Part shown: positions 271 to 58,768 of the stretch, one piece after another
Position numbering within the stretch: position 1 is the first letter of the stretch
How the letters are laid out: each line of letters begins with the position of its first letter
Program-made: the position numbers and the translations under genes
The notes under the pieces: generated by a model
What the model saw: only the letters and a program-made list of their open reading frames with translations
Told to the model about the DNA's origin: nothing
Databases searched by the model: none
Source: an uncultured bacterium
Lineage (GTDB): Bacteria; Patescibacteriota; Minisyncoccia; Phycocordibacterales; CAWITU01
DNA length: 64,000 bases
NCBI GenBank assembly: GCA_963839205.1
Contig: CAWITU010000002.1
Span: 148,627-212,626, forward strand
Direction of reading: 5' to 3'

Positions 271-289
271 CCTTTGTTATAATTAATTT

Positions 290-829
290 ATGGATAATCC
301 AGAAATTGCGGTTTTCGGTGGTGGATGTTTTTGGTGTACCGAAGCAGTTTTTAAAATGCTTAAGGGAATAAATTCTGCCCAACCCGGGTATTCTGGTGGG
401 TATGTTGATAACCCAACTTATGACCAAGTTGTAAGTGGTACTACTGGTCATGCTGAAGTTGCTAAAGTGGAATTTGATCCAAAATTAATTTCATTTAGAG
501 ATCTTCTAACTGTATTTTTTGGAACTCATGATCCAACAACTTTTAACCGGCAGGGGAATGATGTCGGAGCCCAATACCGTTCAATGATTTTCTATGCCAA
601 TGAAGAACAGCGAAAAGAGGCGGAAGATTTTATCAAGGAAATTAATGAGTCTAATAAGGACGGCCGGCCAGTCGTTACTGAAGTGGTTCCACTTCAAAAA
701 TTCTGGCTGGCCGAAAACTATCATCAGGATTATTTCAGAACTCACCCTGGAAATCCATATTGCGAAATTGTCATTAATCCAAAACTTGAGAAGGTGCAAG
801 AACAGTTCTCTAAACTTTTGAAGGTGTAA
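290..829 (+). CDS. msrA: peptide-methionine (S)-S-oxide reductase MsrA
   Basis: GGCFWC active-site motif near the N-terminus. Full-length MsrA-like 179-aa ORF. Confidence 0.95.
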   Translation: MDNPEIAVFGGGCFWCTEAVFKMLKGINSAQPGYSGGYVDNPTYDQVVSGTTGHAEVAKVEFDPKLISFRDLLTVFFGTHDPTTFNRQGNDVGAQYRSMIFYANEEQRKEAEDFIKEINESNKDGRPVVTEVVPLQKFWLAENYHQDYFRTHPGNPYCEIVINPKLEKVQEQFSKLLKV

Positions 830-886
830 TATGTTGACTTAAACAACGTCCTAGATAATAATTAGAGTATCTAACTATTAATAAAC

Positions 887-2488
887 ATGAATAATTATTT
901 CAAGAAAGCTTTTGAGTTTATAAAAAAACCAGTAGGTATTATTTCGATCATTGTAGTGGTGGCGATCATCTCCATTGCTGTGGTTTTTATGATGTTATCT
1001 CCTAGTATTAAAAATAACATGTTTGTTGTTACTAAGCAGACTATAACAGATAACGTCTCTGCTACAGGCGCAATTAAGGCTGCTCAAAGTGTTGATTTAG
1101 CTTTTGTTGGATCGGGCCAAATATCTTCAATTAAAGTTGGTATAGGAGACCAAGTCACTGCTGGTCAGATTCTTCTGGAGCAAAATAACAATACTCTTTA
1201 TGCTTCACTTGAAGGAGCACAGGCAAATTTATCAGGGGAGGAAGCCACACTAAATCAATTAAAAATTGGTACAAGACCAGATCAGCTTGCCTTAGACGAA
1301 TCAGCTGTTTCGGCCGCCTCAACAAGTTTGGAACAATCTGAAAATGCTGTCCAGAGTGGAATTCAGAGCTCATATGTGGCGTCAGATGATGCAATTCATA
1401 ATCAGGTAGATCAATTTATGAATAATCCTCGAACTTCAAACCCGACGCTTGAGATAGTCGTAACAGACTCTTCTCTTCAGAATCAGATTGAAAGTGGACG
1501 TACTGTTGTTGAGGGAATTCTCTCAAATTGGCAAAGTAATTTAAGTACCTACCAATCAGACAGTGGAGCCAATCTAGATTCAGATGTTGTAACTGTTGAG
1601 ACGAACCTTTCTGCGATAACTGATTTCCTACAAAAAGTTTCAGAGGCTGTAAATAATATTACTCCATCTAATAACCCAAACCTTTCGCCAGCGACTATTA
1701 GTCAATATAAGTTAAGTATTACTACAGCAAGATCAAATGTTTCTGGTGCCTTATCTTCACTTATAGGTGGAGTTACAGCAGAAAAGGGAGCTGAATCAGC
1801 TTTGATTAGCGCAGAAGAATCACTCACCTTGGCTCAAAATGGTGCCACTGCGGATCAAATTGCTACTGAAGAATCCAAAGTTCAGGCAGACCAGGCTGTA
1901 GTTGATGGATACCAAGCTCAGATTGAAAATACAATTATGCGTGCTCCAATAGACGGTGTAATTACAAGACAAGATGCTAATCTTGGTGAAATTGCCACCC
2001 CTGGTACTACTCTTGTTTCTCTTGATTCAAATGCAAAGTTTCAAATGGATTTATATTTGTCAGAAAATGATATTGCGAATGTAAAAGTTGGACAACCTGC
2101 GACAGTAACTCTTGATGCACTTGCTTCTAGTACACCACTTTCTGCAACTGTCTTGAGTGTAAGTCCTGGGGCTCAAATGGAGAATGGAATGCTTTCCTAT
2201 AAGACAACTCTTCAAATTAATTCCGACGATCCGAGAGTAAAAGCCGGCATGAGTGCCAGTGCAAATATTACTGTGGGTAGTTCAACTGATGCACTTGTTA
2301 TTCCTCAAAGTGCGGTTATTACACAAGGTTCAAGCACTTACGTTCTCAAATATATGAATGGTTCGAAGCCAACGCTGGTGCCTGTAGCCCTTGGCCTGAA
2401 AGATGCTTCTGGCGTGGTCCAGGTACTATCTGGGCTCAATGAAGGAGATACAGTCGCAACATTTGGTTTAAACGCTTCAGGAAATTAA
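887..2488 (+). CDS. HlyD/membrane-fusion-family efflux adaptor protein
   Basis: N-terminal TM helix, lipoyl-like hairpin halves (VDLAFVGSGQISSIKV.., IMRAPIDGVITRQ), a long coiled-coil insert and a C-terminal beta-barrel-like region. Confidence 0.8.
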   Translation: MNNYFKKAFEFIKKPVGIISIIVVVAIISIAVVFMMLSPSIKNNMFVVTKQTITDNVSATGAIKAAQSVDLAFVGSGQISSIKVGIGDQVTAGQILLEQNNNTLYASLEGAQANLSGEEATLNQLKIGTRPDQLALDESAVSAASTSLEQSENAVQSGIQSSYVASDDAIHNQVDQFMNNPRTSNPTLEIVVTDSSLQNQIESGRTVVEGILSNWQSNLSTYQSDSGANLDSDVVTVETNLSAITDFLQKVSEAVNNITPSNNPNLSPATISQYKLSITTARSNVSGALSSLIGGVTAEKGAESALISAEESLTLAQNGATADQIATEESKVQADQAVVDGYQAQIENTIMRAPIDGVITRQDANLGEIATPGTTLVSLDSNAKFQMDLYLSENDIANVKVGQPATVTLDALASSTPLSATVLSVSPGAQMENGMLSYKTTLQINSDDPRVKAGMSASANITVGSSTDALVIPQSAVITQGSSTYVLKYMNGSKPTLVPVALGLKDASGVVQVLSGLNEGDTVATFGLNASGN

Positions 2489-2497
2489 AATAATAAT

Positions 2498-4702: not shown

Positions 4703-5128
4703 ATGAAAGATAAACAATTTAACACATTAATACCACTTCTATTTAATGTCTCTCGTCTTATTCGAGAGAGGACGGATTCGGTGCGCCCTGACCTTGTTTC
4801 AGCACTTCGCTTGGAAACACTCCGATTCATTGAGGAGAAAAAACCAACCATGAAAGAACTTTCTGAATTCCTGCGAATTACACCACCTTCAACAACTACA
4901 CTTGTTAAATCATTGTGTAGTAAAAAACTTGTTATGCAGAAACACGAACCTAAAGATAAAAGAACGGTACGACTGTCCGTTACGAAATTAGGCAAACAAT
5001 CAATGGACAAATGCACATCAGGAAAGGTCATTTTCTTGAAAAAATTCTTCAATCATTTAACTTCGGGAGAACTAAAAATGATTATCTCAATTCTTAAAAG
5101 ACTACAGAAACAATATCAAACTTTATAA
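4703..5128 (+). CDS. MarR-family transcriptional regulator
   Basis: Winged-helix pattern (PTMKELSEFLRITPPSTTTLVKSLCSKKLV..DKRTVRLSVT). Start placed at ATG 4703 rather than the tracked 4661, to avoid overlap with the MFS gene. Confidence 0.8.
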   Translation: MKDKQFNTLIPLLFNVSRLIRERTDSVRPDLVSALRLETLRFIEEKKPTMKELSEFLRITPPSTTTLVKSLCSKKLVMQKHEPKDKRTVRLSVTKLGKQSMDKCTSGKVIFLKKFFNHLTSGELKMIISILKRLQKQYQTL

Positions 5129-6097
5129 ATTTTGGTTTGCCAAAATGCTTTTAACCATATTAATTGGAATAGCAAAGCTAATGTTGTTGGAGCCTACTGC
5201 GGTCGCTACGTTAATGGCAATTACGTTGCCAGAAAGATCTAGAAGAGGCCCTCCGGAATTGCCTGGATTAATAGCAGCATCGGTTTGAATTACACCTGTC
5301 AGTTGTTCGGTTGTTCCATTTTCGTCACTGGCTTCAATCGTTCTGTTAAGTCCTGAAATAACTCCAACAGACACCGAGTTGTTGTATTCCCCAAGAGCAT
5401 TTCCAATCGCAGCAACGCTTTGCCCAAGTTTTAATGTTGATGAATCTCCAAAGGAGACTACTGGATAACCAGTACCGTCTATTTTTACAACCGCAATGTC
5501 ATAGGTTGGGTCCCTGTATACAACAGTTGCGGTTTTTTGGCTACCGTTTGAAAGAAGTACTGTATAGACAGCGTTTGTGTCCGGAACCACGTGTTTATTT
5601 GTCACAATATACCCATTTGACCTAATAAAAAAACCTGTACCGGCAGCAACTTTTTGTAATGATTCTCCAATTTGTTTATAAACTGGAATTTGAATTCCAA
5701 AATTTTGATAATTAGGATCATTACCAAAAGGGTTCTCATAAGTTACCTGAAGTTGGGGAACATCTTCTGATTCAACAATTGAAACGACTTCAGGTGATAC
5801 TTTTGCAACCGCCGTAGTTAAAAGATTCTGACTAGAGTCAGATGCCACAGATTGGGAGTTTTGCTTCAGAGCTTCTGCTGTCTGAGTTTGTATTTTATTT
5901 ATAGTGGATGCTTCGCTTGAGGAGGAACTTAATATTGTGCTCTGAAAATTGTCCAATTCGTGTGTAAGCAGGGATACTTTTGAATTCAAATTATTAATTT
6001 CTTTAAAAACGTATACCCCTGAAATAACTGCGGCGATAGCCAATACTGCAACAACAGATATTAAAATTACCCTTATTTTTATATATTCTTTAAACAT
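5123..6097 (-). CDS. membrane-anchored trypsin-like serine protease (S1C/HtrA-like, no clear PDZ)
   Basis: N-terminal TM. Catalytic motifs TNKHV (His) and GNSGGPLLD (Ser). Confidence 0.85.
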   Translation of the reverse strand: MFKEYIKIRVILISVVAVLAIAAVISGVYVFKEINNLNSKVSLLTHELDNFQSTILSSSSSEASTINKIQTQTAEALKQNSQSVASDSSQNLLTTAVAKVSPEVVSIVESEDVPQLQVTYENPFGNDPNYQNFGIQIPVYKQIGESLQKVAAGTGFFIRSNGYIVTNKHVVPDTNAVYTVLLSNGSQKTATVVYRDPTYDIAVVKIDGTGYPVVSFGDSSTLKLGQSVAAIGNALGEYNNSVSVGVISGLNRTIEASDENGTTEQLTGVIQTDAAINPGNSGGPLLDLSGNVIAINVATAVGSNNISFAIPINMVKSILANQNL

Positions 6098-6178
6098 TTT
6101 ATATATTTACGATACTAAGACTAAATTAGTTGCTACTCATGACAAATCAAAATATGCCACTATGATATACTAAATTAT

Positions 6179-6646
6179 ATGACAAATACTCCACAAAGTG
6201 AGGCGGCAGACCTTAAAAGAAGAGAGGCCGAACACCAGCGACAAGAACAAGAGAGAAAGGATAAAGATCATAAAATGATTGATTTGAACCTTAAAAAAGG
6301 TTTGATTATTTCAACTGACAGAGAAATTAGAAGCAAGGAAGCTGAACTGGTTACTCTGTCTAGAGAATTAGCTGAACTAAAAAAGAAGGGGGACAGAAAT
6401 GTCCAAGATACTCGGGAGATTGATCAAAAAATTGAATTAGATAAGAAAGAGGTATCTAATCTGGAAAATGAAATATCACGACTTGTACAAGAGAAAAATA
6501 TTAATGAGAGAAGTATGGGGTCTGGGTCTAAGACTGCCACTATTGAAACAAAAATTAGAAATCTGCAAACACAGGTAGACCAACTAAATAAAAATAAAGA
6601 AACTCTGACTAGGGAAGCGAGTGAGCTAGAACGACTGGTGAGATAA
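6179..6646 (+). CDS. coiled-coil hypothetical protein
   Basis: 155-aa ORF rich in K/E/Q with heptad-like periodicity. No recognisable domain. Confidence 0.5.
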   Translation: MTNTPQSEAADLKRREAEHQRQEQERKDKDHKMIDLNLKKGLIISTDREIRSKEAELVTLSRELAELKKKGDRNVQDTREIDQKIELDKKEVSNLENEISRLVQEKNINERSMGSGSKTATIETKIRNLQTQVDQLNKNKETLTREASELERLVR

Positions 6647-7958
6647 GTGGGCAGATTTTTATAGGTAATTGAATTGTAAAACAAGTACCCTTGTTTGAGC
6701 TCTGAACTGAAATTTCTCCTGAAAAATCTTTCTCAATAATTTCTTTGGTAATTGAAAGGCCGAGACCAATACCTTTGTCTGCTGGTTTAGTACTAAAAAA
6801 TGGTTCAAATATTCGGCCAATATTTTCTTCCCTGATACCTTGACCGGTATCTTTTATTTTTATTATGGACATAGTTTTTTCCTTTTTAAGAATGATTGAT
6901 ACTGAAAAGTTCTTGTTGTTATCCGTTGATGAATCTAGAGCATTTGAAATTATATTGGTAATCATTTGGTTAAACCTTAGTGGATTTCCATACAGAACTG
7001 TATTCTTGTGCAAATCAGTGTGAATTCTAGCTTTACAGATTTTGGTCTTGTATGAAAAAACATCTATCACTTTTTGTATTTCCTCATAAGGATTAAAGAT
7101 TTCGCTTAGCTCCTTAGTCTGAATTTGATTTTGAGCAGCACACATAAATTTTTCAATTCGAGAAGCAATCTGTAAGGCGTTAGTAACATGTGAATCGCAA
7201 GTCTTTATTTCTTTAACATTTAAAATCATAGCCGAAAGAGGATTTATTATGTCGTGGAAAATTCCCGAAGATAATCTACCAAATTCAACAAAACGGTAGA
7301 GTTGAGACATTTTCTCAAATTCAGCATGCCTAAGTTCCTCCGTCCTAATTTTCACGATTGTCTCCAAAGAGTCTCTTTCCTTTTGTAATTTTACTTCTTC
7401 TAATGATTTGAAAATTTCTGTATTGTAGAGCCAGGAAATTCCCATAATTAGAAAATAGGTAATTATAAAAGGAAAAATATCATCAAAATCTATGGAATCA
7501 GTTCTCCAGCCTTGGTCCATCTGAATAATTCCGCGTGTATCGGTAAACCATAATATAAGTACTGTGAATGAAATGATGCCGGTCATTATAAACCCATACC
7601 TAGTGCCACATAGTATGTTTGAAACTACTATGACTAACGCATAACCTAAAATCGCTGCTGGTAAATTAATGCCCCATATATAGGAAAGGTAAGTGGGACT
7701 CAATAAATAGATCCACGTTAATTCGTAAGCAGCAGCCTCATAATATTTTGCTTTATATGTAGCTGAGACAAAAAGGAGAAGGCAAAGAAGAATGCCAAAA
7801 TCTGTAAGGTGCCAATTATTGTGAACTGAATTACGAATAATTTTATCTACTATAAACGCAAATTCTATGCCACCTATACATATGACAGAAAATATTAAAA
7901 GAATTTTAAGTATAAACCTTTGCCGATAAGTTTCTTCTAAATTCATTTTAAATCTCAA
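6609..7958 (-). CDS. sensor histidine kinase
   Basis: Multi-TM N-terminus, H-box FHDIINPLSAM, G-boxes DTGQGI and GIGLGLSI. Confidence 0.85.
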   Translation of the reverse strand: MRFKMNLEETYRQRFILKILLIFSVICIGGIEFAFIVDKIIRNSVHNNWHLTDFGILLCLLLFVSATYKAKYYEAAAYELTWIYLLSPTYLSYIWGINLPAAILGYALVIVVSNILCGTRYGFIMTGIISFTVLILWFTDTRGIIQMDQGWRTDSIDFDDIFPFIITYFLIMGISWLYNTEIFKSLEEVKLQKERDSLETIVKIRTEELRHAEFEKMSQLYRFVEFGRLSSGIFHDIINPLSAMILNVKEIKTCDSHVTNALQIASRIEKFMCAAQNQIQTKELSEIFNPYEEIQKVIDVFSYKTKICKARIHTDLHKNTVLYGNPLRFNQMITNIISNALDSSTDNNKNFSVSIILKKEKTMSIIKIKDTGQGIREENIGRIFEPFFSTKPADKGIGLGLSITKEIIEKDFSGEISVQSSNKGTCFTIQLPIKICPLISPVVLAHSLP

Positions 7959-8613
7959 GCTTGTAGCCCCTTCCTGGTAATGTTTTAATCATTTTTTTCT
8001 TGCCAGTATCAACTTTCTTACGAAGATTTAAAATATGAGCCTCAATTGTGTTTGAAAAAGGATCGCTCTCTCTGTTCCAGACATGCTCCAAAATCATTTC
8101 TCTCGATAAAACTTTTCCAACATTCCCCATCATGTATTCTAATAAAGAGAATTCTTTTCTTGTTAGATATATTTCACGTTTGTTTCTAATTACTCTTTGA
8201 GTCGATGGATCAAGTGTTAAATCAAGAATCTTCAAAATTGTTGGTTTAATTGTTGGGGGCCTACGGAGGATTGCCCGCACTCGAGCTAAAACTTCTTCAA
8301 AGAAGAAAGGTTTGGTTATATAATCATCAGCCCCCATATTAAGAATGCCAGTCTTAAGGGCTACCCCAGTTTTGACCGAAAGCATAATAATTGGTATTTC
8401 TTTGCCAGACGCTCGAATCTCCTGACAAATTTGAAAGCCGTCTTTTTTTGGTAAAACATTATCAAGCAGGATAATATCGTAACTATTTGTTCTAGCTAAA
8501 TAGGAACCCTCTTCTCCATCTTCGGAACCGTCAACCGCAAAGGAAGCTTGCTCAAAACCATTTTGGAGAGCATTTAGTATGTCTGGGTCATCTTCTACAA
8601 TAAGCATTCTCAT
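7948..8613 (-). CDS. OmpR/PhoB-family response regulator
   Basis: Receiver domain (LIVEDDPD ... ILLDNVLP ... K) plus winged helix (LTRKEFSLLEYMM). Its 3' end overlaps the start of the downstream kinase gene. Confidence 0.95.
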   Translation of the reverse strand: MRMLIVEDDPDILNALQNGFEQASFAVDGSEDGEEGSYLARTNSYDIILLDNVLPKKDGFQICQEIRASGKEIPIIMLSVKTGVALKTGILNMGADDYITKPFFFEEVLARVRAILRRPPTIKPTILKILDLTLDPSTQRVIRNKREIYLTRKEFSLLEYMMGNVGKVLSREMILEHVWNRESDPFSNTIEAHILNLRKKVDTGKKKMIKTLPGRGYKLEI

Positions 8614-9329: not shown

Positions 9330-9764
9330 TTATAGAGCCGATTTTATTAAATCGGAAATTGATTTTAATTCTGATTCAGGAGTATTTTCTCTTGGGCCTG
9401 GTCTATATAAAAATTTTCTTGGTTCATATTCTGTTATGCCCTCGTCACCACTTTTTCTTGGAAGCATGTGTAGGTGAAAGTGGGGAATTGACTGACCAGC
9501 AATTTTTTCTTCATTCCAGGCATAATTAAAACCTTGAGCACCAAAAGTTTTCGCTAATGCTGATTTCAATTTAATTCTAATTTCCTCAATCGCTTCTTTT
9601 TCGGCTAGTGTCAGATCTTCATATTTTGCTACACAACGAATTGGAAGGATTAGTGTGTGGCCAGGAACTACTGGAATATTTGTCGGAATTGCCCAAGCAG
9701 ACTCATTGCGAATGATTTCTCTTTCTTTTACTTCGGCTGAATTGCAATAAATGCAGGCTTCCAT
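9330..9764 (-). CDS. HIT-family (histidine triad) protein
   Basis: HFHLHMLP histidine-triad motif and an N-terminal CxxC. Confidence 0.9.
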   Translation of the reverse strand: MEACIYCNSAEVKEREIIRNESAWAIPTNIPVVPGHTLILPIRCVAKYEDLTLAEKEAIEEIRIKLKSALAKTFGAQGFNYAWNEEKIAGQSIPHFHLHMLPRKSGDEGITEYEPRKFLYRPGPRENTPESELKSISDLIKSAL

Positions 9765-9913
9765 GCATAGGATTCTATAGTATGAACTTTATAAAACAAG
9801 CAAAATCGGCATTTTAGATGAAATTTTTCTGAAAAAAGTCTAAAAAAGTCCTGAATGACGGCTTAAGATATGAGCGGTTGCATAACGAAATAAGCTATGG
9901 TACTCTTTCGCCT

Positions 9914-12314: not shown

Positions 12315-12370
12315 GTTTCCCTAAAATATTTTTAACTTTTCTTCATATTGTTTATGATATGTTTTTTTGC

Positions 12371-12907
12371 ATGAAAAACATCACAAATACTGAGGTTACT
12401 TTACCTTCAGAAATTATTAAGGATAAGATCTATTTTATAAGAGGAAAGAAAGTGATGTTAGACAGAGATTTGGCAATTCTTTATGGAGTTCCAACCAAGG
12501 TTCTTAATCAGGCCGTAAAAAGAAATTTAGATCGGTTCCCTGAGGATTTTATGTTTGTGCTGAATGATGTGGAACTATTAAATTGGAAGTCACAATTTGT
12601 GACTTCCAATTCGACGCTTAAGCAAAGTCTTAGAAAACCACCGCTTGCTTTCACTGAGCAAGGAATCGCTATGCTTTCAAGTGTTTTAAACAGCAAAAGA
12701 GCTATACAAGTTAATATTCAAATAGTCAGAATATTCACTAAACTTCGGGAGATGATTGATATTTATAAGGAATTAAGGGAAAAAGTGGAGGAAATGGAAA
12801 AGAATAACGAAACTAATTTTAAGGAAATATTTAGAGTAATCAGACTACTTGTTAAAGTTGAAAAGAAGCCAAAAGGTAAAATGGGGTTTGAGACAGACCC
12901 GTTGTAA
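12371..12907 (+). CDS. ORF6N-domain protein (anti-repressor-like)
   Basis: IYFIRGKKVMLDRDLAILYGVPTKVLNQAVKRNLDRFPEDFMF motif. Paralog of 35775-36344. Confidence 0.8.
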   Translation: MKNITNTEVTLPSEIIKDKIYFIRGKKVMLDRDLAILYGVPTKVLNQAVKRNLDRFPEDFMFVLNDVELLNWKSQFVTSNSTLKQSLRKPPLAFTEQGIAMLSSVLNSKRAIQVNIQIVRIFTKLREMIDIYKELREKVEEMEKNNETNFKEIFRVIRLLVKVEKKPKGKMGFETDPL

Positions 12908-13504: not shown

Positions 13505-13567
13505 AGTTCGGCTATATTACCGCATCTTTTGATAAAAATCAAAAGTATATAAGGTATAATTATCTTT

Positions 13568-14155
13568 ATGACTGAATCCGTATTAATCACCCTCCTAATC
13601 AAATATAAATATGAGATTCTTTTCCCAGGATTGGTCATTGAAGGCCCAATTCTAACTCTGCTAGCAGGCTTCCTGGCTACTCCGGCAGGTGGTTCAATTT
13701 TTAATTTAGCAACTTTATATTTTGTGGTTCTGTTTTCTGATGTCTTTGGTGATGTTTTGTATTACTCGGTTGGCAGGTGGGGAAGGGGGACAAAACTTTT
13801 TAAATGGCTTTTGTATAGAATGAAGCGAACGGAAGAGAGTTTTATCTTTGTCGAAGAATACTTTAGAGACCACGGTGGTAAAACACTGGCGTTGGCAAAA
13901 ATTACTCATGGTTTGGGTTGGCCAGTTATGGTCGCATCGGGAAGCGCCCGAATGAAATTCGGGCGCTTCTTTGCTTTTTGCTTTGCGACAAGTATTTTTA
14001 AATCAGCTGGCTTAATTCTTCTCGGCTATTTTTATGGACGAAGTTATGAGCTTGTAGATGATTACCTAAGTTATACCAGCTTCATAATTACCTCCGTTGT
14101 CATCCTTATTCTAGTTATCTATATAGTTAGGTCTTGGCGAAAGTCCAAAAAGTAA
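13568..14155 (+). CDS. DedA-family membrane protein
   Basis: About 195 aa, 4-5 TM, DedA/SNARE-associated pattern. Confidence 0.8.
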   Translation: MTESVLITLLIKYKYEILFPGLVIEGPILTLLAGFLATPAGGSIFNLATLYFVVLFSDVFGDVLYYSVGRWGRGTKLFKWLLYRMKRTEESFIFVEEYFRDHGGKTLALAKITHGLGWPVMVASGSARMKFGRFFAFCFATSIFKSAGLILLGYFYGRSYELVDDYLSYTSFIITSVVILILVIYIVRSWRKSKK

Positions 14156-45426: not shown

Positions 45427-46473
45427 ATGAACAAGAAACTTCGACTTTTTATAACAGGGGGCTCTGGCTATGTTGGTGCCATGCTTGCCCAACAATTTTC
45501 TGCTCTAGATGAAGTAGAATCGATTGTTTGTTTGGACAAGGAGCCAATGTCAGAACTTTTGATTGGTAATTCTAAAATTCATTTTATTCAGCAGAATTTA
45601 GGTGATGACGGCTGGCAATCGGAGGTGTCTAAAGAAAATCCGGGTGTGGTTATACATACCGCTTGGCAGATTAGGAATTTATATGGAGAAGAAGAGAAGC
45701 AGTGGAAGTGGAATGTTGAAGGAACAGATAAAGTTTTTGATTTTGCTCTCTCAACTCCCTCGGTGAAAAAACTGATATATTTCTCTACAGTCGCTTCATA
45801 CGGGGCTTTTCCTCAAAATACCGTTGACCATTTTTTCAAAGAGGAAGAGGGCTTTCGTAAGACAAATTATCTATATGCCGAAGAAAAACGGGTGTCCGAA
45901 GAGCACCTAGAAGAAAAATATAAAAACTATCTCGCAAAAGTCGGTAAAGACACAGCCAAACTACCCCAAGTTTTTATTGTCCGCCCAGCAGCTATAACAG
46001 GTCCTCGCGGTAGATATATGAGGATAAGATTTGGATTACAGTCCGCCCTGTCTGGTCAGCTTACGGGATCATGGGCTTATAACATTGTCACCGCTATGGT
46101 GTCATTTGTTCCAATTACACCAAAGTGGTGTAGACAATTTATCCATGAGGATGACGTTACTGATATCGTTAAACTCTTCACCTTCTCAGATCTTAAGGGA
46201 ACATACGAAGTCTTTAATATCTGTCCCCCAGGAAAAGTTGTTCTTGGTAAAGATATGGCTCAAGCGGTAAATAAAAAAACACTCATGGTCTATCCATGGA
46301 TGGTTAGGTTAGCTTTTTTTTGGTTCTGGCATTTGACGAGAGGGAAGATAACCACTTCCCCAGGGGGTTGGAAATCATACTCATTTCCAATTGTTGTCGA
46401 TGGCTCAAAACTTACAAAACAATACGGTTACATATACAAATATCCTTCATCTGGATGCATTCAGAAAAGTTGA
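45427..46473 (+). CDS. NAD-dependent epimerase/dehydratase-family protein
   Basis: ITGGSGYVGAML Rossmann motif and YAEEK (YxxxK). Confidence 0.8.
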   Translation: MNKKLRLFITGGSGYVGAMLAQQFSALDEVESIVCLDKEPMSELLIGNSKIHFIQQNLGDDGWQSEVSKENPGVVIHTAWQIRNLYGEEEKQWKWNVEGTDKVFDFALSTPSVKKLIYFSTVASYGAFPQNTVDHFFKEEEGFRKTNYLYAEEKRVSEEHLEEKYKNYLAKVGKDTAKLPQVFIVRPAAITGPRGRYMRIRFGLQSALSGQLTGSWAYNIVTAMVSFVPITPKWCRQFIHEDDVTDIVKLFTFSDLKGTYEVFNICPPGKVVLGKDMAQAVNKKTLMVYPWMVRLAFFWFWHLTRGKITTSPGGWKSYSFPIVVDGSKLTKQYGYIYKYPSSGCIQKS

Positions 46474-47165: not shown

Positions 47166-49417
47166 ATGATTAAAACAAGAGTTATTGCCGCTTCGATTGT
47201 ACTTCTGGCCTTGGTCATTGGTGCTTTCAACTATTATTCCGAATTTAAACCGGCATCTTTTGTCGGTGGTTTTCCTTTTAAATTAGGTCTAGATTTAAAT
47301 GGTGGTTCAGAGCTTACATATCAAGCGGATGTTTCTAAAGTTGATCCAAGCGATGTTGCTGGATCTATGCAGGCTCTACATGATGTCATTGAAAATAGAA
47401 TTAATGTTTTCGGTGTTTCCGAACCGGTTGTTGAAACTCAAGAGGCGACACTTCTAAATGGACAGAAAATCCAAAAGTTAATTGTTCAGCTTCCTGGCGT
47501 TACGAATGTTAATGAAGCAATTTCAATTATCGGCCAGACACCGGTTTTGGAATTTCGTTTAGTAAATCCAGCTAAGGCAAAACTTATTACAGCTTCTTCA
47601 ACCCAAGCTGATATTGACGCCGCTTTCGTTCCAGTTGGTCTTACAGGCAGATATTTACAAAGTTCACAAATTCAATTTGATTCACAAAGTGGACAGCCAG
47701 TTGTGTCTTTAAATTTTAATACTGAAGGCGCTGCGATTTTTGCTTCAACAACTAAAAATAATATTGGTCAGATGTTGGCGATATTCTTGGACGGCAAAAT
47801 TATTTCTAGCCCAGTAATTCAGCAGGAAATTGATAACGGTCAGGCCCAAATATCAGGTGGTTCAATGACTGCGTCAGAAGCCAAGACTTTGGCTCAGAAT
47901 TTGAATTATGGTGCACTTCCAGTTCCAATCACACTTATTGGTACTCAGACAATTGGTGCCTCACTTGGTATTGATGCCTTGAATAGAAGCGTTAAAGCTG
48001 GTATTATAGGCTTTGCAATAATCGTTCTATTCCTTATCCTTTGGTACCGATTGCCGGGACTATTGGCAGGAATTTCACTTTCAATATACGTTCTCATGAT
48101 GCTCGCAATCTTTAAGTTGGTTCCAGTAACACTTACCGCAGCTGGACTCGCAGGTTTCGTTCTCTCTATCGGTATGGCTGTTGATGCGAACATTCTTATC
48201 TTTGAAAGAATGAAAGAAGAACTTCGAAATGGTAGAACTCTAGAGGATGCGACACGAGAAGGATTCACACGAGCTTGGACATCCATCCGTGACGGAAACC
48301 TATCAAGTATTATTACTGCAATCATCTTGTTCTGGTTCTCCAGCACCTCAGTTATCAAAGGTTTTGCTTTAATCTTCGGAGTTGGAGTTTTGGTAAGTAT
48401 GATTACAGCCATCAGTATTTCTAGAACATTCCTATTGGCTGTGACACCAAAGAGTAATTCAAAATTTGTGAGATTTTTATTCAGTAACGGATTTAATTTA
48501 ATAATCATGTTCGTCATTAAATACAGAAAAATATTCTACTCATTCTCAGCACTGCTCGTGGTTATTTCAATCGCCTCACTTTTAATTTGGGGCCTTCATT
48601 TCGGAGTTGATTTCACCGGTGGTTCAGTTTTAAATGTCTCATACTCTCCAGCACGTCCATCATTGGATATAATTAATGCTCAAGTTAAGCCTCTTTCCTT
48701 ACAATCAACTAAATTCAGCCAAGCGGAAACAATGGTTACATAATTACGACTAAAGCACTTACAGAAGATCAACATCAAGGTCTTCTAAATGCCATTTCTC
48801 CTAGTGGAAGTTCAACGCTCACGGTTGATAGTTATAATACAGTTGGTCCGATACTTGGTTCGGAACTAGAAGGGAAGTCAATCGTCTCAATTATTTTAGT
48901 TATTATGGCCATTGTTCTTTTCATAACCTGGGCTTTCCGAAAAGTTTCGGAACCTGTTTCTTCCTGGATCTATGGTCTCATCGCCATTTTTGATTTGATT
49001 CACAACGTTATCGTGCCTGTGGGTATCTTTTCAATTGTTGGACATTTCTTGCACTTCCAAGTAGATACACTTTTCGTTAACGCAATTTTGGTTATTCTTG
49101 GTTTTTCTATTCACGATACGATTGTTGTATTCGATAGAACTCGTGAGAATTTGAAATTAAATAGAGAACATAATAAGAAAGAATCTTTTGATAACGTTGT
49201 TGGGCGAAGTATTAGTCAGACTATGGTCAGATCAATCAATACTTCACTTACAGTAGTATTTACACTGCTTATCCTGTATTTCTTCGGCTCAACTACTACC
49301 AGAGACTTCTCGATGGTTCTTCTCGTTGGTATCGTGGTTGGTACCTATTCCTCAATCTTTTTGGGTTCTCCTCTCCTAGTTACTATTGAAAAGTGGCAGA
49401 ATAGAAAGAAAAACTAA
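47166..49417 (+). pseudogene. secDF: fused protein-export membrane protein SecD-SecF (one apparent frameshift near 48730)
   Basis: SecD periplasmic domain and 6 TM, then a SecF N-terminus in the same ORF. The frame changes at ..SQAG/NNGYIITTKALTEDQ.. and the SecF TM bundle continues to 49417. Confidence 0.9.
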
Positions 49418-49434: not shown

Positions 49435-49462
49435 TTGACTCTATCTAGCGGCCGTATATAAT
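49435..49462 (+). promoter_or_regulatory. sigma70-type promoter of the 16S unit
   Basis: TTGACT (49435-49440), 16-nt spacer, TATAAT (49457-49462). A roughly 370-nt structured leader follows. Confidence 0.65.
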
Positions 49463-49837
49463 ACCCCCTACGTCCTTAATGGGCGGTTCTTTGAAAATTA
49501 TCTGTCTAAAATCACGATTTATCTTGAATTTAGACAGATTGAAATATTGCCCTGTGTAGCTTTAGCGTAGAGCGGGTAGGACCGAGAACGTATTAACGCT
49601 CTGTATTGCCTCCTATCGAGCAGCTATGGAGGGAAAACGTGCAAGTCAATTAAAATATTTTTTTGTTCTCCCGCGGAGCTCGTCAGAGCAAAGTGGGAGT
49701 AAATAATTCCAAAAACAATGATCAATTGTTGGATGAGCTAGGATCAAACTTGTTGGTGAAATATAAATTTAGATTAAGTACTATTTTTTATTTTGCCTCA
49801 TTCTAATAAATATAAGTATTTATACTTTTTATTTAAT

Positions 49838-51324
<1,487 letters not shown>

Positions 51325-51493
51325 TGAATACGTCTCACGTTCTTCGTAAGAAGGGCGTGGGGCTGACAGTGTCGATGTTGCGGGTTCCAATTGGACTCAC
51401 AACGGATAATGATGAATAATCCTTAAAAATCATTGGACATTTGGGAAAGACCAGAAAATAAAGAATGAGGCAAAATAAAGGATGGTACTGAAT

Positions 51494-51524
51494 AGAGAGG
51501 GCGGCCCAAAGGGCCGCCCTCTCT
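51494..51524 (+). terminator. terminator after the 16S trailer
   Basis: AGAGAGGGCGGCCC-AAA-GGGCCGCCCTCTCT. Confidence 0.75.
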
Positions 51525-51819
51525 TGCTATTTGTATAAGTTTATGATATAATCCTTAGACAAATAAACATTAGCCTACTTGAAAGGGGGTGTAGGGCATT
51601 GATCAATAATGAAACAAGTACTCCAGAAATAAGAATCTAGAGGATGAAATTCGTCCTTATGGTTCTCCTATCTCCCTTCGTGGTCTTTACGGTGTGGGCA
51701 ATCGCTTGCACGTATCATGAGTCTCTACAGGAGATAGGGAGTCGAGCCGGCGTGGAAACATTCGCGCCGGCTCTTTCTTTTTCCTGCATCTTTTGTTATC
51801 TTAAGGAAGCTTCTTTTGC

Positions 51820-51895
51820 GCGCGCATAGCTCAGTTGGTAGAGCATTCGACTGATACTCGAAAGGTCCTAGGTTCGAACCCTAGTGCGCGCACCA
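51820..51895 (+). tRNA. tRNA-Ile (anticodon GAT), CCA encoded
   Basis: Manual cloverleaf: acceptor GCGCGCA/TGCGCGC, D arm GCTC-AGTTGGTA-GAGC, anticodon loop CTGATAC, T arm CTAGG-TTCGAAC-CCTAG, ACCA. Confidence 0.9.
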
Positions 51896-51969
51896 TTTTT
51901 ATTTTATACAGAGAAGACCTTTTCATCAGAAAGTATTTGTGATATATTTTTTTAGAAAAGGGGAGCTCC

Positions 51970-52344
51970 ATGATTTCATCTATACGTGCTGTGTCGGTTA
52001 CTCGTGTTGTGCCAGTCGTTCTTTATCTTTTCCGAAAAGTATTAATTCCCCCCGAAGCCTATCTAAAATTAAGATTGAGAAAATTTGAAAATTGGCTAAA
52101 AGCCTATCCTGGAAGAATGCGATTAGCTGAATTTGAGGAGGATGCTAAACTTCAACTTGATGATCACCTTGAGACTGTCAGACAAGCCTATCGGCTCTAC
52201 TTAAAAAGTGATGGTTATACTTATATTAGTTTCCCGGGAGTAAGGTTTATTTTTCAAAGGCCTGAAGCAGAAATCAATGAGCTAACCGTTCATTGTGTGC
52301 TCTGGAAAATCAGAGCTACTCAATTAGGCTGGTCCATAATATGA
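51970..52344 (+). CDS. hypothetical protein (SD-bearing)
   Basis: 124-aa ORF preceded by AAAAGGGGAGCTCC-ATG and followed by a GC-rich terminator. No recognised domain. Confidence 0.45.
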   Translation: MISSIRAVSVTRVVPVVLYLFRKVLIPPEAYLKLRLRKFENWLKAYPGRMRLAEFEEDAKLQLDDHLETVRQAYRLYLKSDGYTYISFPGVRFIFQRPEAEINELTVHCVLWKIRATQLGWSII

Positions 52345-52377
52345 CCGGCGGCGCGCTCCAAAACGCGCCGCCGGCTT
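52344..52377 (+). terminator. rho-independent terminator
   Basis: ACCGGCGGCGCG-CTCCAAAA-CGCGCCGCCGGCTTT. Confidence 0.75.
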
Positions 52378-52397
52378 TACTTTTAATTAATATAAAA

Positions 52398-53451
52398 ATG
52401 CAAAATAAAAAAACTAAATATAATTGCCACAATTGGTCCTGCTACTGAAAGTCAGTCACAGTTAGAAAAACTACTCAAAGCGGGTATGACTTTCATGCGC
52501 CTAAATTTTTCGCATGGTGATTTTGAAGAGCATGCTAAGAAAGTTAAGAATCTAAAGAAGGCTTCCAAGGCTACTCATATGAAGGCAATAACATTTCAGG
52601 ATCTCGGGGGACCAAAAATACGAACTGGAGAATTTCATACTCCAAGTGGTAGGGCCCATATTGAAGCAGGTGAAAAGTTTATACTTACCACTTTAAAAGC
52701 AAAAGGAGATGGAACCCGAGTTCATATAACTTACAAGAAATTACCAAAAGAAGTTAAAGTCGGTCATCGAATTATGCTTGATGATGGAAAAAAGGAATTG
52801 GATAGTTACTTCCATAAAAGGAACAGAGATTATTACTAAAGTAATCGTCGGTGGGGAACTCAAAGGGAGACGCGGAGTTAATCTTCCTGATACCAATCTT
52901 TCAATCAGTTCACTAACATCGAAAGATAAAAAAGATTTAATTTTTGCTATTAATCATAAACTTGATTATGTCGCGCTTTCATTTGTCAGGATCCTTCTGA
53001 TGTGATTGAACTTCGCAAAATTCTTAAAAAAGCTGGATCAAAAGCTGGTATCATTGCGAAAATAGAAACACCTCAGGCTGTAGACCATATTGATGAAATT
53101 ATAAAATTATCTGACATGATTATGGTAGCGAGAGGAGATTTGGCAGTTGAAATTCCTGCTGAAACAGTTCCATTGGTTCAGAAAATGATTGTTAGAAAAT
53201 GTAATAAGGCTGGTAAGCCAGTCATTGTGGCCACTCAGATGTTTGAATCAATGATCCATGCTTCAACACCAACTCGCGCCGAAGTCTCAGATGTGGCTAA
53301 TGCGGTCTTGGACGGCGCAGACGCTGTTATGCTCTCAGAAGAAACCACTTTAGGTTCTTATCCGATTGAATCAGTAGTTATGATGAATAAAGTAATTACT
53401 GCAACTCAAAAGGAAATGCGAAATCCTCATTTTCTTAAACACATAGTCTAG
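52398..53451 (+). pseudogene. pyk: pyruvate kinase (A/B domains only), about 3 apparent frameshifts
   Basis: [78 protein letters not shown] 52398 is out of frame across a 7-A run. Further frame changes near 52805 and 52995. Confidence 0.85.
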
Positions 53452-53487
53452 ATAGTAGAATTTTGTTATTGTATCAATTGGCAAAAT

Positions 53488-53574
53488 GCCGATGTGGTGA
53501 AATTGGCAAACACGTAGTGTTCAGAACGCTATGGGCGCAAGCCCTTGGAGGTTCAAGTCCTCTCATCGGCACCA
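53488..53574 (+). tRNA. tRNA-Leu (anticodon CAG), class II, CCA encoded
   Basis: Acceptor GCCGATG/CATCGGC, anticodon loop TTCAGAA, long variable arm TGGGCGCAAGCCCTT, T loop TTCAAGT. Confidence 0.9.
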
Positions 53575-53577
53575 ATT

Positions 53578-53650
53578 CGGAGCATAGTGTAACGGCTAAC
53601 ATACACGATTCGGGTTCGTGTGATTCTGGGTTCGAATCCCAGTGCTCCGA
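53578..53650 (+). tRNA. tRNA-Pro (anticodon CGG), CCA not encoded
   Basis: Acceptor CGGAGCA/TGCTCCG, anticodon stem-loop CACGA-TTCGGGT-TCGTG, T arm CTGGG-TTCGAAT-CCCAG. Confidence 0.9.
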
Positions 53651-53677
53651 TGTAAGAGGCGAATCCCAGTGCTCCGA
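53633..53677 (+). repeat. 18-nt direct duplication of the tRNA-Pro 3' end
   Basis: CGAATCCCAGTGCTCCGA occurs at 53633-53650 (inside the tRNA) and again at 53660-53677, separated by TGTAAGAGG. Confidence 0.9.
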
Positions 53678-53700
53678 AAACAGAAGTTGAAGTTAATGAT

Positions 53701-53946
53701 ATGTTGGTTTATAGTAGTGTCATGAATAAACATCTGATTGTTGCAATTTTAGGGTTAGTTTCATTTCTTTTAATTTTTCCAAGTTTTCCGATTATGTGGA
53801 AACTTTATTTCTTTGCAATTTCAGGCCTCGTGCTTTGTTGGATTGGTACAACACTTTATTTTCAAGACCGAAAAGAAGCCAAAAATAAAAGAGGCAGTAG
53901 ACCTATGTTGGAAGAAGCAAAAACATTCGTTGAGAATGTTGTATAA
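53701..53946 (+). CDS. small two-TM membrane protein
   Basis: 81 aa with two hydrophobic helices and a basic C-terminal tail. Confidence 0.45.
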   Translation: MLVYSSVMNKHLIVAILGLVSFLLIFPSFPIMWKLYFFAISGLVLCWIGTTLYFQDRKEAKNKRGSRPMLEEAKTFVENVV

Positions 53947-53960
53947 TTAGCTCATAGATA

Positions 53961-55763
53961 ATGAATAATGAGGAAAAAGTAACTTATTTTGCCGAGACCG
54001 ACTCGCGCAACAAGCGGATTCCTTTTGGCATCAAAAATAAGGATAGATCTCGCCACACTTATGTGATTGGTAAAACTGGCATGGGTAAATCAACTTTGCT
54101 TGAGAATATGGCTGTTCAGGATATTAAAAACGGCGAAGGCTTTGCTTTCATTGATCCTCACGGAAAATCAGCCGATCTTCTTCTTGAATATATTCCAGAG
54201 TCGCGAATTAAGGACGTACTGTACTTTGCGCCATTTGATATGGAGTACCCAGTCTCCTTTAATGTGATGGAGGATGTAGGGGCTGACAAAAGGCATCTTG
54301 TTGCAAATGGTTTGATGAGCGCTTTTAAAAAGATTTGGGTTGACGCTTGGTCAGCTCGTATGGAATATATTTTGAATAATATTCTGTTGGCCCTCCTTGA
54401 ATATCCAGATTCAACTTTGATTGGTGTTAACAGAATGTTGGCGGACAAGGATTATCGAAAGAAAGTCGTTGATAATATTACTGACCCGTCGGTTAAATCT
54501 TTTTGGGTTGATGAATATGCTAAATACACTGATCGTTTTGCTGCCGAAGCCGCACCTGCAATTCAAAACAAAATTGGACAGTTCGTTTCTAATCCGCTCG
54601 TTAGAAATATTATTGGTCAACCAAAATCAACTTTTGATATTAGAAAATTGATGGATGAGAAAAAAATTCTCATTATTAACCTTTCCAAAGGAAGAGTGGG
54701 TGAATCAAATGCCAACCTTTTGGGGAGTATGCTTATCACTAAGATTTATCTAGCGGCAATGTCTCGAGCCGATCTAAGTGAAGATGAACTTAAAACCAGG
54801 CCCCATTTTTATCTCTATGTGGACGAATTTCAAAACTTTGCTAATGAATCATTCGCAGACATTCTTTCTGAGGCTAGAAAGTATAAATTAGATTTAACTG
54901 TAGCCCATCAATATATTGAGCAAATGTCGGAAGAGGTGAGGGCGGCGGTTTTCGGAAACGTTGGTACGATGATTGTCTTTAGAGTGGGTGCTTATGATGC
55001 TGAAGTATTGGAAAAAGAATTTGCACCACAATTTACAGCGGAAGATCTAGTTAATCTTGGTTTTTGTCAGATATATTTAAAATTGATGATTGATGGGGTA
55101 AGTTCATCACCTTTCTCGGCCGTAACATTACCGCCAATTAAAAGGGAAGCAACTTCTTTCCATAATCAGATAATTGAAAGTTCCAGAGATTCTTATGCTA
55201 GACCTCGTAATGTTGTTGAAGAAGAAATTAAGATTTGGCATGCTCCAATTGAATCACCAAGACCCGCTCAAGCCCCAAGATCTGCTTTTGTGGACAAGAA
55301 GACTATTCCAACAACTCAAAATCAGTCACCAAAATTTACAGCGCAGCAACCCAGAGAATCAATTAACCGAGATAGAAAACCATTCGCACCTCCGCTTCCA
55401 CCACCTGCTCCGGTTCAACAAACACCAGCTCAGACTCGACAAGCGGAGCGTAATGTTCGAGATTCACGTGAGACTGAGATTCGAAAGGCGATGTCATTGG
55501 ATTATTTAAAACCAAAGGTTGAACCTGAAAAGAAAAAAGAGCCAAGTGCTCAAAATATTGCAGACTTAAGAGCGGCACTTCTTTCGGTATTGCCAGCAGA
55601 ATCAATTAAGCAGACCCAGCCACCAGCTCCTCAACCTAAGCCTAAAATGCTAGAAGTAAAAAAAGAGGAGACTACTGCTGTTCAAAATAATGAAGCTAAG
55701 ACAAAAGAGGTTCCGGAGGAGGTTCTAAGAAAAATATTACATGTCGATGAACCCGAAAGTTAA
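53961..55763 (+). CDS. TraD/VirD4-like (type IV coupling-protein family) P-loop ATPase with Pro/Gln/Lys-rich tail
   Basis: Walker A GKTGMGKST, Walker B-like HFYLYVDEFQNF, AHQYIEQM. The C-terminal roughly 190 aa are low complexity (PPLPPPAPVQQTPAQT..). Confidence 0.65.
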   Translation: MNNEEKVTYFAETDSRNKRIPFGIKNKDRSRHTYVIGKTGMGKSTLLENMAVQDIKNGEGFAFIDPHGKSADLLLEYIPESRIKDVLYFAPFDMEYPVSFNVMEDVGADKRHLVANGLMSAFKKIWVDAWSARMEYILNNILLALLEYPDSTLIGVNRMLADKDYRKKVVDNITDPSVKSFWVDEYAKYTDRFAAEAAPAIQNKIGQFVSNPLVRNIIGQPKSTFDIRKLMDEKKILIINLSKGRVGESNANLLGSMLITKIYLAAMSRADLSEDELKTRPHFYLYVDEFQNFANESFADILSEARKYKLDLTVAHQYIEQMSEEVRAAVFGNVGTMIVFRVGAYDAEVLEKEFAPQFTAEDLVNLGFCQIYLKLMIDGVSSSPFSAVTLPPIKREATSFHNQIIESSRDSYARPRNVVEEEIKIWHAPIESPRPAQAPRSAFVDKKTIPTTQNQSPKFTAQQPRESINRDRKPFAPPLPPPAPVQQTPAQTRQAERNVRDSRETEIRKAMSLDYLKPKVEPEKKKEPSAQNIADLRAALLSVLPAESIKQTQPPAPQPKPKMLEVKKEETTAVQNNEAKTKEVPEEVLRKILHVDEPES

Positions 55764-57108: not shown

Positions 57109-57170
57109 TTTAGGTAATTATCCTCATATCCATTTGATTTATCCCTTGTTTGTGATATAATAGGCAACGT

Positions 57171-57458
57171 ATGAAAAACAGACATTCAAACGGGAACAGC
57201 GGTTTCATTTATGCGGCTTTTCTGGTTTTGGGAGCACTTTTCATCTTAGCTTCAGGGGTTTCAACCCTCTTAAGTGATGGAGGAAAAGCTGACCCAGGAG
57301 ACCTCTCAGGGGCTACTCCTTTTACTGTGGCTGCAGTAGCAACAAGTACAGCAACCTCAACAGATGATCTAGTTGCCTCAAGTAGTGTGGATATGACAGC
57401 TTCGTCTACAGCAACCACAACTATTGATTCAACTTCTACAGCAACTTCAAGTAATTAA
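57171..57458 (+). CDS. small TM-anchored Ser/Thr-rich protein
   Basis: TM (FIYAAFLVLGALFILASGV) followed by a low-complexity tail, ATSTATSTDD..SSTATTTIDSTSTATSS. Confidence 0.4.
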   Translation: MKNRHSNGNSGFIYAAFLVLGALFILASGVSTLLSDGGKADPGDLSGATPFTVAAVATSTATSTDDLVASSSVDMTASSTATTTIDSTSTATSSN

Positions 57459-57497
57459 TCTTAGTTAGTAAGAGATTTTGTACTATAATAGGTTTCT

Positions 57498-58768
57498 ATG
57501 AAAGAGGAAATAAATATTTCTGATATTAAAAATGTCTACTTTATAGGCATTGGTGGTATTGGCATGTCCGCTTTAGCTCTCTATTTAAAACACCTTGGGA
57601 AGAATGTTGTCGGTTCTGATACTGGCTTCGCTTCGTATGAAAATTTAGTTGAAACTGGTATAGATGTTCACAAAGATTATGACTCAACCAGAATAACTTC
57701 TTCGTATGATGTTGTTGTTTATACTTTAGCAACTCCGAAAGATAATGAAGAACTTTTGAAAGCGGGTGAGTTGGGACTGCCAATCTTCACTTATGCTGAA
57801 ATGTTGGGTTTGGTCTCAAAGAATAAAAAAACTATCGCTATCTCGGGCACTCACGGTAAGACAACTACCACCGCCATGGTCGCTAAAGTATTAATTGATG
57901 CCGGCCTTTCACCAACTGTTATTGTTGGAAGTTTACTTAATTATCCTTTTGGCCAATCAGAAAAGAAAACTAATTTTATTGCAGGCGATAGTGAATACTT
58001 TGTCGTTGAGGCGTGTGAATATAAAAGATCATTTTTAAATTTATATCCATATATTTTGGTAATAACAAATATCGAAGCTGATCATTTAGATTATTATAAG
58101 GACCTCAGTGATATTCAAGAGGCATTCAAGGAGTTGTCAGATAAGGTGCCGAAAGATGGTCCATAATCACTTCAGCGGAATATGACAAGTATATTCAGTC
58201 AGTACCACCTTTAATGAAACCAGGAGAACATAATCGGAAAGATGCTGCTGCGGCATATGCTGTGGCTAAGAAACTTGGAATTCCAGAGGAGGTGATAAAG
58301 AAATCACTTGCTGATTTTCCAGGAACCTGGCGACGGTTTGAATACAGGGGAAAAACTCAAATTGGCGCCTTAATTTATGATGATTATGGTCATCACCCAA
58401 CCGAAATTAAAGCTACATTAGAAGGAGCCAGAGAATTGTTTGGAGATAAAAAAATAATTGCCGTTTTTCAACCTCATCTATACAGCAGAACTAAAGATCA
58501 CCTTCGTGATTTTGGTGAAGCGTTCACAGATGCAGATAAAGTTATTATTGCTCCAATCTTTGCTGCAAGAGAACCATTTGATGATTCAATCTCTTCTGAG
58601 ATGCTAGCTGAAGAAATAAATAAAAATGAAACTGGAAAAGCCCGCGCTATTTCATCTTTCGATGAAATAGCGCGGGCACTTCTTTCTGAAATTTCTTCAA
58701 ACGACGTAATAATTACTATCGGCGCAGGTGATATCTACAAAGTCATTGATCATCTGATGAATAAGTAG
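57498..58768 (+). pseudogene. murC: UDP-N-acetylmuramate--L-alanine ligase (frameshift near 58165; shortened central segment)
   Basis: GIGGIGMSALA, ISGTHGKTTTTAM, NIEADHLDYY, then after a frame change ..PGEHNRKDAAAAYAVAKKLG..GTWRRFEY..DDYGHHPTEI. Confidence 0.85.

Follow-up and report, generated by a model that had tools for sequence, protein, structure and literature searches.

Start codons preceded by -10-like hexamers

The 64-kb window analyzed here, that is, the whole stretch of DNA under study, comes from an uncultured bacterium and raises the question of why hexamers resembling the -10 promoter element TATAAT stand so close in front of many of its ATG start codons, on a contig whose 16S rRNA gene ends without an anti-Shine-Dalgarno (anti-SD) sequence. 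The answer that we favor, at a probability of roughly 0.78 and on the strength of sequence comparison, is that these hexamers are -10 elements abutting the ATG and that they would produce leaderless messenger RNAs (mRNAs) in a genome of the Parcubacteria lacking the anti-SD. The position of the boxes is observed directly; transcription start sites and the mode of ribosome binding are what we infer from it.

The first-pass annotation of the window had listed 11 such hexamers, and all 11, together with their ATGs, are present where it placed them. With the gap counted as the unpaired nucleotides (nt) between hexamer and ATG, it amounts to 6 at the ATGs at 290, 22965, 25377, 28705, 34350, 40936, and 45427, to 7 at 6179 and 13568, to 8 at 57498, and to 9 at 57171. 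These sites and further candidates are given below, where a number between two motifs is the spacer in nt, TGn denotes a TG one base upstream of the hexamer, and sizes of open reading frames (ORFs) are in amino acids (aa).

278 to 292, + strand: msrA; TGt-TATAAT, gap 6, ATG; in-frame TAA at -6; PMSR domain from residue 7
6166 to 6181, + strand: 155-aa ORF; TGa-TATACT, gap 7, ATG; divergent from the protease gene at 5123 to 6097 (- strand)
9762 to 9777, - strand: HIT-family gene; TAGAAT, gap 7, ATG; extra candidate beyond the earlier list
13555 to 13570, + strand: VTT/DedA-domain gene; TATAAT, gap 7, ATG; divergent from efp
17885 to 17902, - strand: ftsK; TATAAT, gap 9, ATG; predicted leader of at most 2 to 3 nt
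22930 to 22967, + strand: 108-aa ORF; TAGTCA-17-TATAAT, gap 6, ATG
23929 to 23968, + strand: 106-aa ORF; TTGAAA-17-TGt-TAGTAT, gap 8, ATG; extra, weaker candidate
25365 to 25379, + strand: 151-aa ORF; TGt-TATAAA, gap 6, ATG; weakest of the listed sites, because TATAAA lacks the conserved final T
28693 to 28707, + strand: penicillin-binding protein (PBP) gene, dimerization domain; TATAGT, gap 6, ATG
34280 to 34352, + strand: gene 34350; 15-base-pair bidirectional terminator at 34280 to 34312, then TTGTTA-17-TGt-TATATT at 34315 to 34343, gap 6, ATG at 34350
40924 to 40938, + strand: 256-aa ORF upstream of ftsW/rodA; TGt-TATAAT, gap 6, ATG
44010 to 44049, + strand: sugar transferase gene; TTGAAA-17-TATCAT, gap 8, ATG
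45392 to 45429, + strand: epimerase gene; TTGGTA-17-TATACT, gap 6, ATG; in-frame stop at -3
57134 to 57173, + strand: 95-aa ORF; TTGATT-16-TGa-TATAAT, gap 9, ATG
57484 to 57500, + strand: murC; TATAAT, gap 8, ATG; Mur ligase domain from residue 13

Whether AT-richness could generate such a pattern was assessed with a crude gene set, in which every long ORF that overlaps no other is taken to start at its first ATG and the rRNA genes are masked, which gives 73 gene-start ATGs in the window. TATAAT with at most one mismatch is found at gap 6 to 9 in 21 of these, against 5.35 ± 2.2 when the 60 nt upstream of each gene are shuffled with dinucleotides preserved; no shuffle among 2,000 attains 21. 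A strict box, defined as TATAAT with at most one mismatch and with T1, A2, and T6 required (TAnnnT), occurs there in 15 of 73 starts, against 2.8 ± 1.7 in shuffles, and is distributed as 6, 3, 4, and 2 over gaps 6, 7, 8, and 9, where the other ATGs of the window predict 0.2 to 0.5 per position. Exact TATAAT at gap 6 to 8 is moreover the top scorer among the 20 permutations of three As and three Ts, both in the window (5 hits) and in related loci (31 hits). With the peak above the shuffles and TATAAT first among its permutations, the box-to-ATG spacing on which the first-pass annotation had relied withstands AT-matched control. No peak appears when the identical pipeline is applied to 100 kb of Bacillus anthracis pXO1, an SD-using negative control of 33 to 35% guanine-plus-cytosine (GC) content (3 boxes at gap 6 to 9, baseline 4.4), and SD-like cores precede 41 of 100 genes there, against 7 in a control region.

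A subtler form of the same objection is that the ORF definition itself enriches in-frame TAA or TAG before a first ATG. One-mismatch hexamers of the TAAAAT type do include a stop codon that falls in frame when the gap is 0, 3, 6, or 9, and at these gaps the definition favors them; a period-3 ripple is visible in the gap distribution. The TAA within exact TATAAT, however, would be in frame at gaps 5 and 8, whereas the hexamer itself is most frequent at 6 and 7, and the spike persists in the TGn-anchored, annotation-free test described below; both of these tests are free of the in-frame-stop bias. Counting any ATG that opens an ORF of at least 80 codons proved to be diluted by internal Met codons, and the first-ATG and TGn-anchored tests were used instead. 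With the shuffle and permutation controls rejecting chance, and with no peak in pXO1, an origin in AT-richness or ORF definition is largely refuted and can be considered very improbable, and the placement of boxes at start codons is confirmed as real and far above chance.

It is also conceivable that the promoters are real but that translation starts elsewhere than at these ATGs, or that most transcripts come from promoters farther upstream, so that the mRNAs would have ordinary leaders. The gene starts are predictions, and several sites lie 24 to 62 nt past a gene on the same strand with no terminator detected between them. On the other hand, at 10 of the 11 listed sites the stretch from the in-frame stop upstream to the ATG is free of ATG, GTG, and TTG, so that the coding region cannot extend upstream, and Pfam domains start within 6 to 12 residues of the ATG in msrA, the epimerase gene, and MurC, which leaves little room for a downstream start. 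A strong terminator precedes the site at 34350, and an enrichment around the first ATG would not arise were those ATGs irrelevant. We therefore regard ordinary leaders as an unlikely explanation for these sites.

As a separate observation on the sugar transferase gene (44047, + strand), its start lies just 8 nt from that of the divergent GT4 glycosyltransferase gene (42860 to 44038, - strand), and its TATCAT is the reverse complement of ATGATA, the first two codons of that neighbor.

Promoter-like character of the boxes

Comparison with relatives began from FtsK (15656 to 17887, - strand), whose best matches, at 58 to 64% identity, are in metagenome-assembled genomes (MAGs) of Taylorbacteria, Zambryskibacteria, Nomurabacteria, Yonathbacteria, Paceibacterota, and Parcubacteria. 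Because these are MAGs of the Parcubacteria type, the organism is, by its FtsK sequence, placed as a member of the Parcubacteria (candidate phyla radiation [CPR]/Patescibacteria); this placement rests on the FtsK matches, and an exact-protein look-up of the window FtsK found no match on record. The relatives referred to hereafter are 80 related loci from the FtsK search (L001 to L080; 1.43 Mb in total). They contain no 16S gene, and the promoter and 16S-tail surveys are thus separate sequence sets.

The most direct view of the boxes is independent of gene annotation. Anywhere in the 1.43 Mb of relatives there are 667 TGnTAnnnT motifs, and an ATG follows 53 of them at gap 6 and 20, 19, and 23 at gaps 7, 8, and 9, over a baseline of about 11 per offset, with no corresponding spike for GTG, TTG, or CTG. 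A peak of this kind, one nucleotide sharp and specific to AUG, is to be expected if transcription starts at a fixed position relative to the start codon. Around 110 sites of the relatives, T and G reach frequencies of 0.55 and 0.51 at the TGn positions (background, 0.30 and 0.20), and a weak T-rich or TTG-like signal appears at -23 to -20, the place of a -35 element with a spacer of 16 to 18 nt. TGn is present at 6 of the 11 listed window sites. The features of a sigma-70 extended -10 promoter, namely, TG at -15/-14, TAnnnT, and a -35 element at 16 to 18 nt when present, are accordingly found here. The same element drives the rRNA genes of the window, in two promoters:

49435 to 49462, + strand: 16S rRNA promoter; TTGACT-16-TATAAT; the reference promoter for this organism
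36408 to 36435, + strand: 23S rRNA promoter; TTGACT-16-TATAAT

Because both carry TATAAT, the hexamer can be taken as the organism's -10 element in an untranslated setting.

These observations bear on a further possibility, which is that the hexamer is a translational signal on leadered mRNAs, either an A/U-rich non-SD motif of the kind known from Bacteroidetes or a partner of the altered 16S tail. A-rich, G-poor sequence from -11 to -3 does lie upstream of all genes, internal ones included, and the 16S tail is itself A/U-rich. A ribosome-binding motif would, however, account neither for TGn and -35-like signals at sigma-70 spacing nor for the presence of the same element in front of untranslated rRNA genes, and the sharpness and ATG specificity of the spike also argue against it.

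Conservation and mobility in relatives

A box at gap 5 to 9 is conserved across orthologues in a gene-specific manner, as can be seen from the numbers of orthologues that carry it:

ftsK: 37 of 76, with TGn in 30 of those 37
family of 34350 to 34928: 13 of 25
recA, C-terminal part: 0 of 76
15357 to 15659: 2 of 77
rpsF: 1 of 57
18086 to 18913: 3 of 60
rplJ: 1 of 36

The ftsK promoter of the relatives (TGnTAAAAT or TGnTATAAT) alternates between leaderless and leadered positions. An extended -10 element lies within 66 nt of the ATG in 64 of 78 ftsK orthologues, at gap 6 to 9 in 32 and at gap 11 to 44 in another 32, so that leader length is evolutionarily labile within the clade. As a ribosome-binding site could not shift from 6 to as far as 44 nt from the ATG, this mobility points to a promoter in the case of the ftsK element and again weighs against a translational signal. 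In the relatives, a box at gap 5 to 9 is found on 17.6% of the genes that are first in a transcription unit and on 8.9% of internal genes (p = 9e-4); the latter figure is one that a translational signal would help to explain.

Loss of the anti-SD and absence of SD motifs

The first-pass annotation had described the anti-SD as missing, and this loss is real.

51311 to 51324, + strand: 16S rRNA 3' tail; GGAATATTTCAAAT where GGATCACCTCCTTA is expected; no anti-SD

The 16S gene ends in ...GUCGUAACAAGGCACGGGUAGCGGAAGCUGCUCGUGGAAUAUUUCAAAU, and its tail, GGAAUAUUUCAAAU, occupies the place of E. coli GGAUCACCUCCUUA without CCUCC; on the + strand, CCTCC does not occur anywhere from 49613 to 54392. The 16S 3' end without CCUCC(U) that characterizes anti-SD-less Parcubacteria is therefore found here, and it is common to a clade. 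Searching metagenomes for the helix-45 loop variant gave 120 contigs, and all 28 of those with the variant of the window (CACGG/TCGTGG stem) lack CCUCC at the anti-SD position, as does contig L121 (TACGG), whereas most of the others (85) have GGATCACCTCCTT. The replacement of the anti-SD is semi-conserved in this clade (28 contigs among L084 to L200; 51311 to 51330 in the window) and reads GGAWTAWTTCAA(N)TTGAA or GGATCATTTTTT.

The mRNA side agrees with this picture. As the first-pass annotation had noted for the other starts that it inspected, GGAGG-like motifs are lacking: GGAG, GAGG, or AGGA occurs at -20 to -5 in 6 of 73 starts of the window, against 2 and 8 in control regions, and SD cores precede 8.3% of starts in the relatives, against 10.4% in control regions, so that upstream of starts SD-like motifs are enriched neither in the window nor in the relatives.

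If the altered tail had acquired a new partner, sequences complementary to it should accumulate near starts. In the window, 5-mers complementary to the tail are not enriched near starts as compared with far from them (15 versus 14 for internal genes, 20 versus 28 for first genes). The relatives do show an excess (181 versus 109 for internal genes, 463 versus 363 for first genes), which consists of generic A/T-rich 5-mers such as AAATA, AATAT, and AATTT, and the tail-specific GAAAT is not enriched (13 versus 16 and 18 versus 28). Pairing of the altered 16S tail with a new upstream motif was rejected on this basis. Together with the promoter signals and the mobility of the ftsK element, this makes a translational role for the hexamer quite unlikely, and promoters abutting the ATG remain the reading that we prefer. 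The 16S tail could form a small hairpin, but a conserved one as a replacement for the SD helix was likewise considered and set aside, as the predicted energies are weak (0 to -6.7 kcal/mol) and the structures inconsistent.

Two side observations concern SD usage and the ribosome. A 102-aa ORF at 40540 to 40866, just past the 5S gene and its terminator, has a textbook SD, GAAGGAGGTGA, 5 nt ahead of its ATG. This ORF has no Pfam match, and its SD, odd in the absence of an anti-SD, could be a chance occurrence, a recent acquisition, or the mark of a non-gene. In addition, rplJ-rplL (33336 to 34251, in the region 33173 to 34251) has a FemAB-family gene, instead of rplK-rplA, in front of it, a context that hints at, without proving, one of the lineages that lack uL1.

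Proposed leaderless initiation and its extent

RNA polymerase starts transcription about 7 nt past the -10 box. If the boxes 6 to 9 nt before the ATG are sigma-70-type -10 elements, often extended by TGn and with a weak or absent -35 element, transcripts would, because of this distance, have as their first base the A of the AUG or a nucleotide 1 to 3 nt before it. Leaderless mRNA of this kind may be bound through its 5'-terminal AUG together with the initiator tRNA, and SD pairing would not be needed.

Hand curation of the window assigns about 15 to 16 of about 41 genes that are first in a transcription unit to this type. The candidate starts are 290, 6179, 9764 (- strand), 13568, 17887 (- strand), 22965, 23966, 25377, 28705, 34350, 40936, 44047, 45427, 57171, and 57498, and possibly 13504 (- strand). 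Our best reading of the sequence is thus that about 20% of genes and about 35 to 40% of transcription units would be leaderless. The first-pass description of leaderless mRNAs as widespread can be upheld insofar as the sequence tests favor promoters abutting the ATG, but only this share of genes and units fits the pattern. Its second suggestion, that the pattern is coherent with the missing anti-SD, is sound in that the loss is real; the link between the two is an argument from coherence, and a cause is not established by it.

Leaderless initiation leaves unexplained how the other genes, equally devoid of SD motifs, are started. Some first genes have a TATAAT-type box 13 to 31 nt upstream and so appear to have short leaders (7948 to 8613 on the - strand, 47166, 51970, 53961, 59910 to 60776 on the - strand, and 61780), and for rplJ, transcribed from TTGACA-16-TAAACT, the leader would measure about 130 nt. 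Operon-internal genes begin 1 to 14 nt after the previous stop, with a spacer that is A-rich and G-poor and has T at -1; in these genes we find a compositional bias alone and no localized motif. Presumably, then, the non-leaderless genes use unstructured A-rich leaders, short ones in the case of first genes, or, when internal, termination-reinitiation.

Several points weigh against promoters abutting the ATG as a general account of these starts. In the window alone, a box is found on 7 of 34 first genes and 3 of 19 internal genes, a difference that is not significant in so small a sample. Contigs without an anti-SD have a -10 box at 14 of 102 starts and those with an anti-SD at 4 of 292, the latter with a threefold enrichment of SD cores, but both contrasts are confounded by GC content. 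A generic scan for TTGACA-N16-18-TATAAT finds no more matches than shuffles do (57 versus 54.5, 49 versus 49.6, and 53 versus 51.4), and the assignment as promoters consequently rests on position and not on motif count; from that scan, individual sites only were used. Several boxes lie merely 24 to 39 nt past the preceding gene, so that long-leader read-through transcripts may coexist with leaderless ones. Finally, the gene calls, as first ATGs of long ORFs, are crude, and the sequence has five or more single-base frameshifts in genes that are conserved, so that individual spacings may err by one.

Relation to known systems and significance

The arrangement is best compared with three known systems and an ordinary type of promoter. 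GeneMarkS-2 group C, typical of Actinobacteria and Deinococcus-Thermus, comprises genomes in which a Pribnow box lies 6 to 8 nt from the start in 25 to 50% of operons (PMC6028130). The window resembles this group in that a -10 motif is localized, above chance, about 6 to 8 nt upstream of AUG start codons, in a quarter to a half of operons; a preference for operon-first genes is seen in the relatives. It differs in that the remaining genes of group C use SD, whereas here SD motifs are not enriched and the 16S lacks an anti-SD, and in that the genome is an AT-rich one (38% GC in the window) of the CPR.

Loss of the anti-SD was described for a subgroup of the Parcubacteria, with a motif detection rate of 48%, by Tsurumaki et al. 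(2022, RNA 28:1041; PMC9297842), where it overlaps lineages that lack uL1 and where SD helices are probably not formed. The 16S 3' end without CCUCCU, the Parcubacteria affiliation, and the apparent rRNA insertions are shared with that subgroup. That study is silent on the route of initiation, and the juxtaposition of promoter and ATG and the lack of upstream SD motifs are added here.

The third comparison is with the Bacteroidetes type, GeneMarkS-2 group B, which is similar in its A-rich, G-poor upstream sequence and in that internal and leadered genes do without SD. One and the same non-SD motif precedes first and internal genes alike at short distance in group B, and so is not a promoter (PMC6028130); here, in contrast, a -10 element is localized at the start, and the anti-SD, which Bacteroidetes 16S retains, is lost. 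As to the promoter, it is an ordinary sigma-70 extended -10 (TGnTATAAT), with TG one base upstream, a weak or dispensable -35, and a spacer of 16 to 18 nt when the -35 is present; what is special is its position against the start codon.

Anti-SD loss and leaderless architecture are each already known, and the mechanism is not new. In the literature searched, we found no published link of leaderless transcripts with Parcubacteria, Patescibacteria, or CPR. How start codons are chosen was left open by the description of anti-SD loss (PMC9297842), and a promoter set against the AUG is a concrete answer that can be tested and that would cover a good part of the genes, with the remaining genes using no SD. 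In such genomes, gene finders that assume SD will misplace starts, and CPR genes may not be expressed in hosts that depend on SD. The lineage could serve as a natural case of SD-free initiation on a reduced ribosome.

It could be speculated, at about even odds, that the whole clade defined by helix-45 CACGG/UCGUG and the A/U-rich tail GGAWUAWUUCAA has dropped SD/anti-SD pairing, and that it starts about one-third of its transcription units from a 5'-terminal AUG and the others from A-rich, G-poor spacers or by reinitiation, in which case the replacement tail might have a function of its own. If so, initiation on the minimal ribosome of this bacterial lineage would be fully independent of SD and in part archaeal in style.

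Other features of the window

The rRNA genes are unlinked, with the 23S-5S pair about 9.4 kb upstream of the 16S gene and protein genes in between:

36696 to 40204: 23S rRNA
40311 to 40419: 5S rRNA
49834 to 51324: 16S rRNA

At 3,509 nt, the 23S gene exceeds the bacterial model (2,925 nt) by about 580 nt, which suggests an insertion; an ORF within it (39368 to 39748) has no Pfam match. Right behind the terminator 3' of the 16S gene lies a strong promoter, TTGCTA-17-TGaTATAAT (51524 to 51552), with no ATG at 6 to 9 nt. It is followed by a small hydrophobic ORF (from 51644), a second terminator-like hairpin (51744 to 51773), and then tRNA-Ile (region 51494 to 51895).

Frame changes break up the coding sequences of five conserved genes:

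14156 to 15171, - strand: recA
28705 to 30424: PBP gene, dimerization and transpeptidase domains
47166 to 49417: secDF
52486 to 53451: pyruvate kinase gene
57498 to 58768: murC

Adding or removing one base is enough to join the frames cleanly in murC, the PBP gene, and secDF, and the frame changes point to assembly or sequencing indels, or else to pseudogenes. The window also holds two paralogous ORF6N-domain genes, at 12359 to 12907 and at 35775 to 36332 (- strand).

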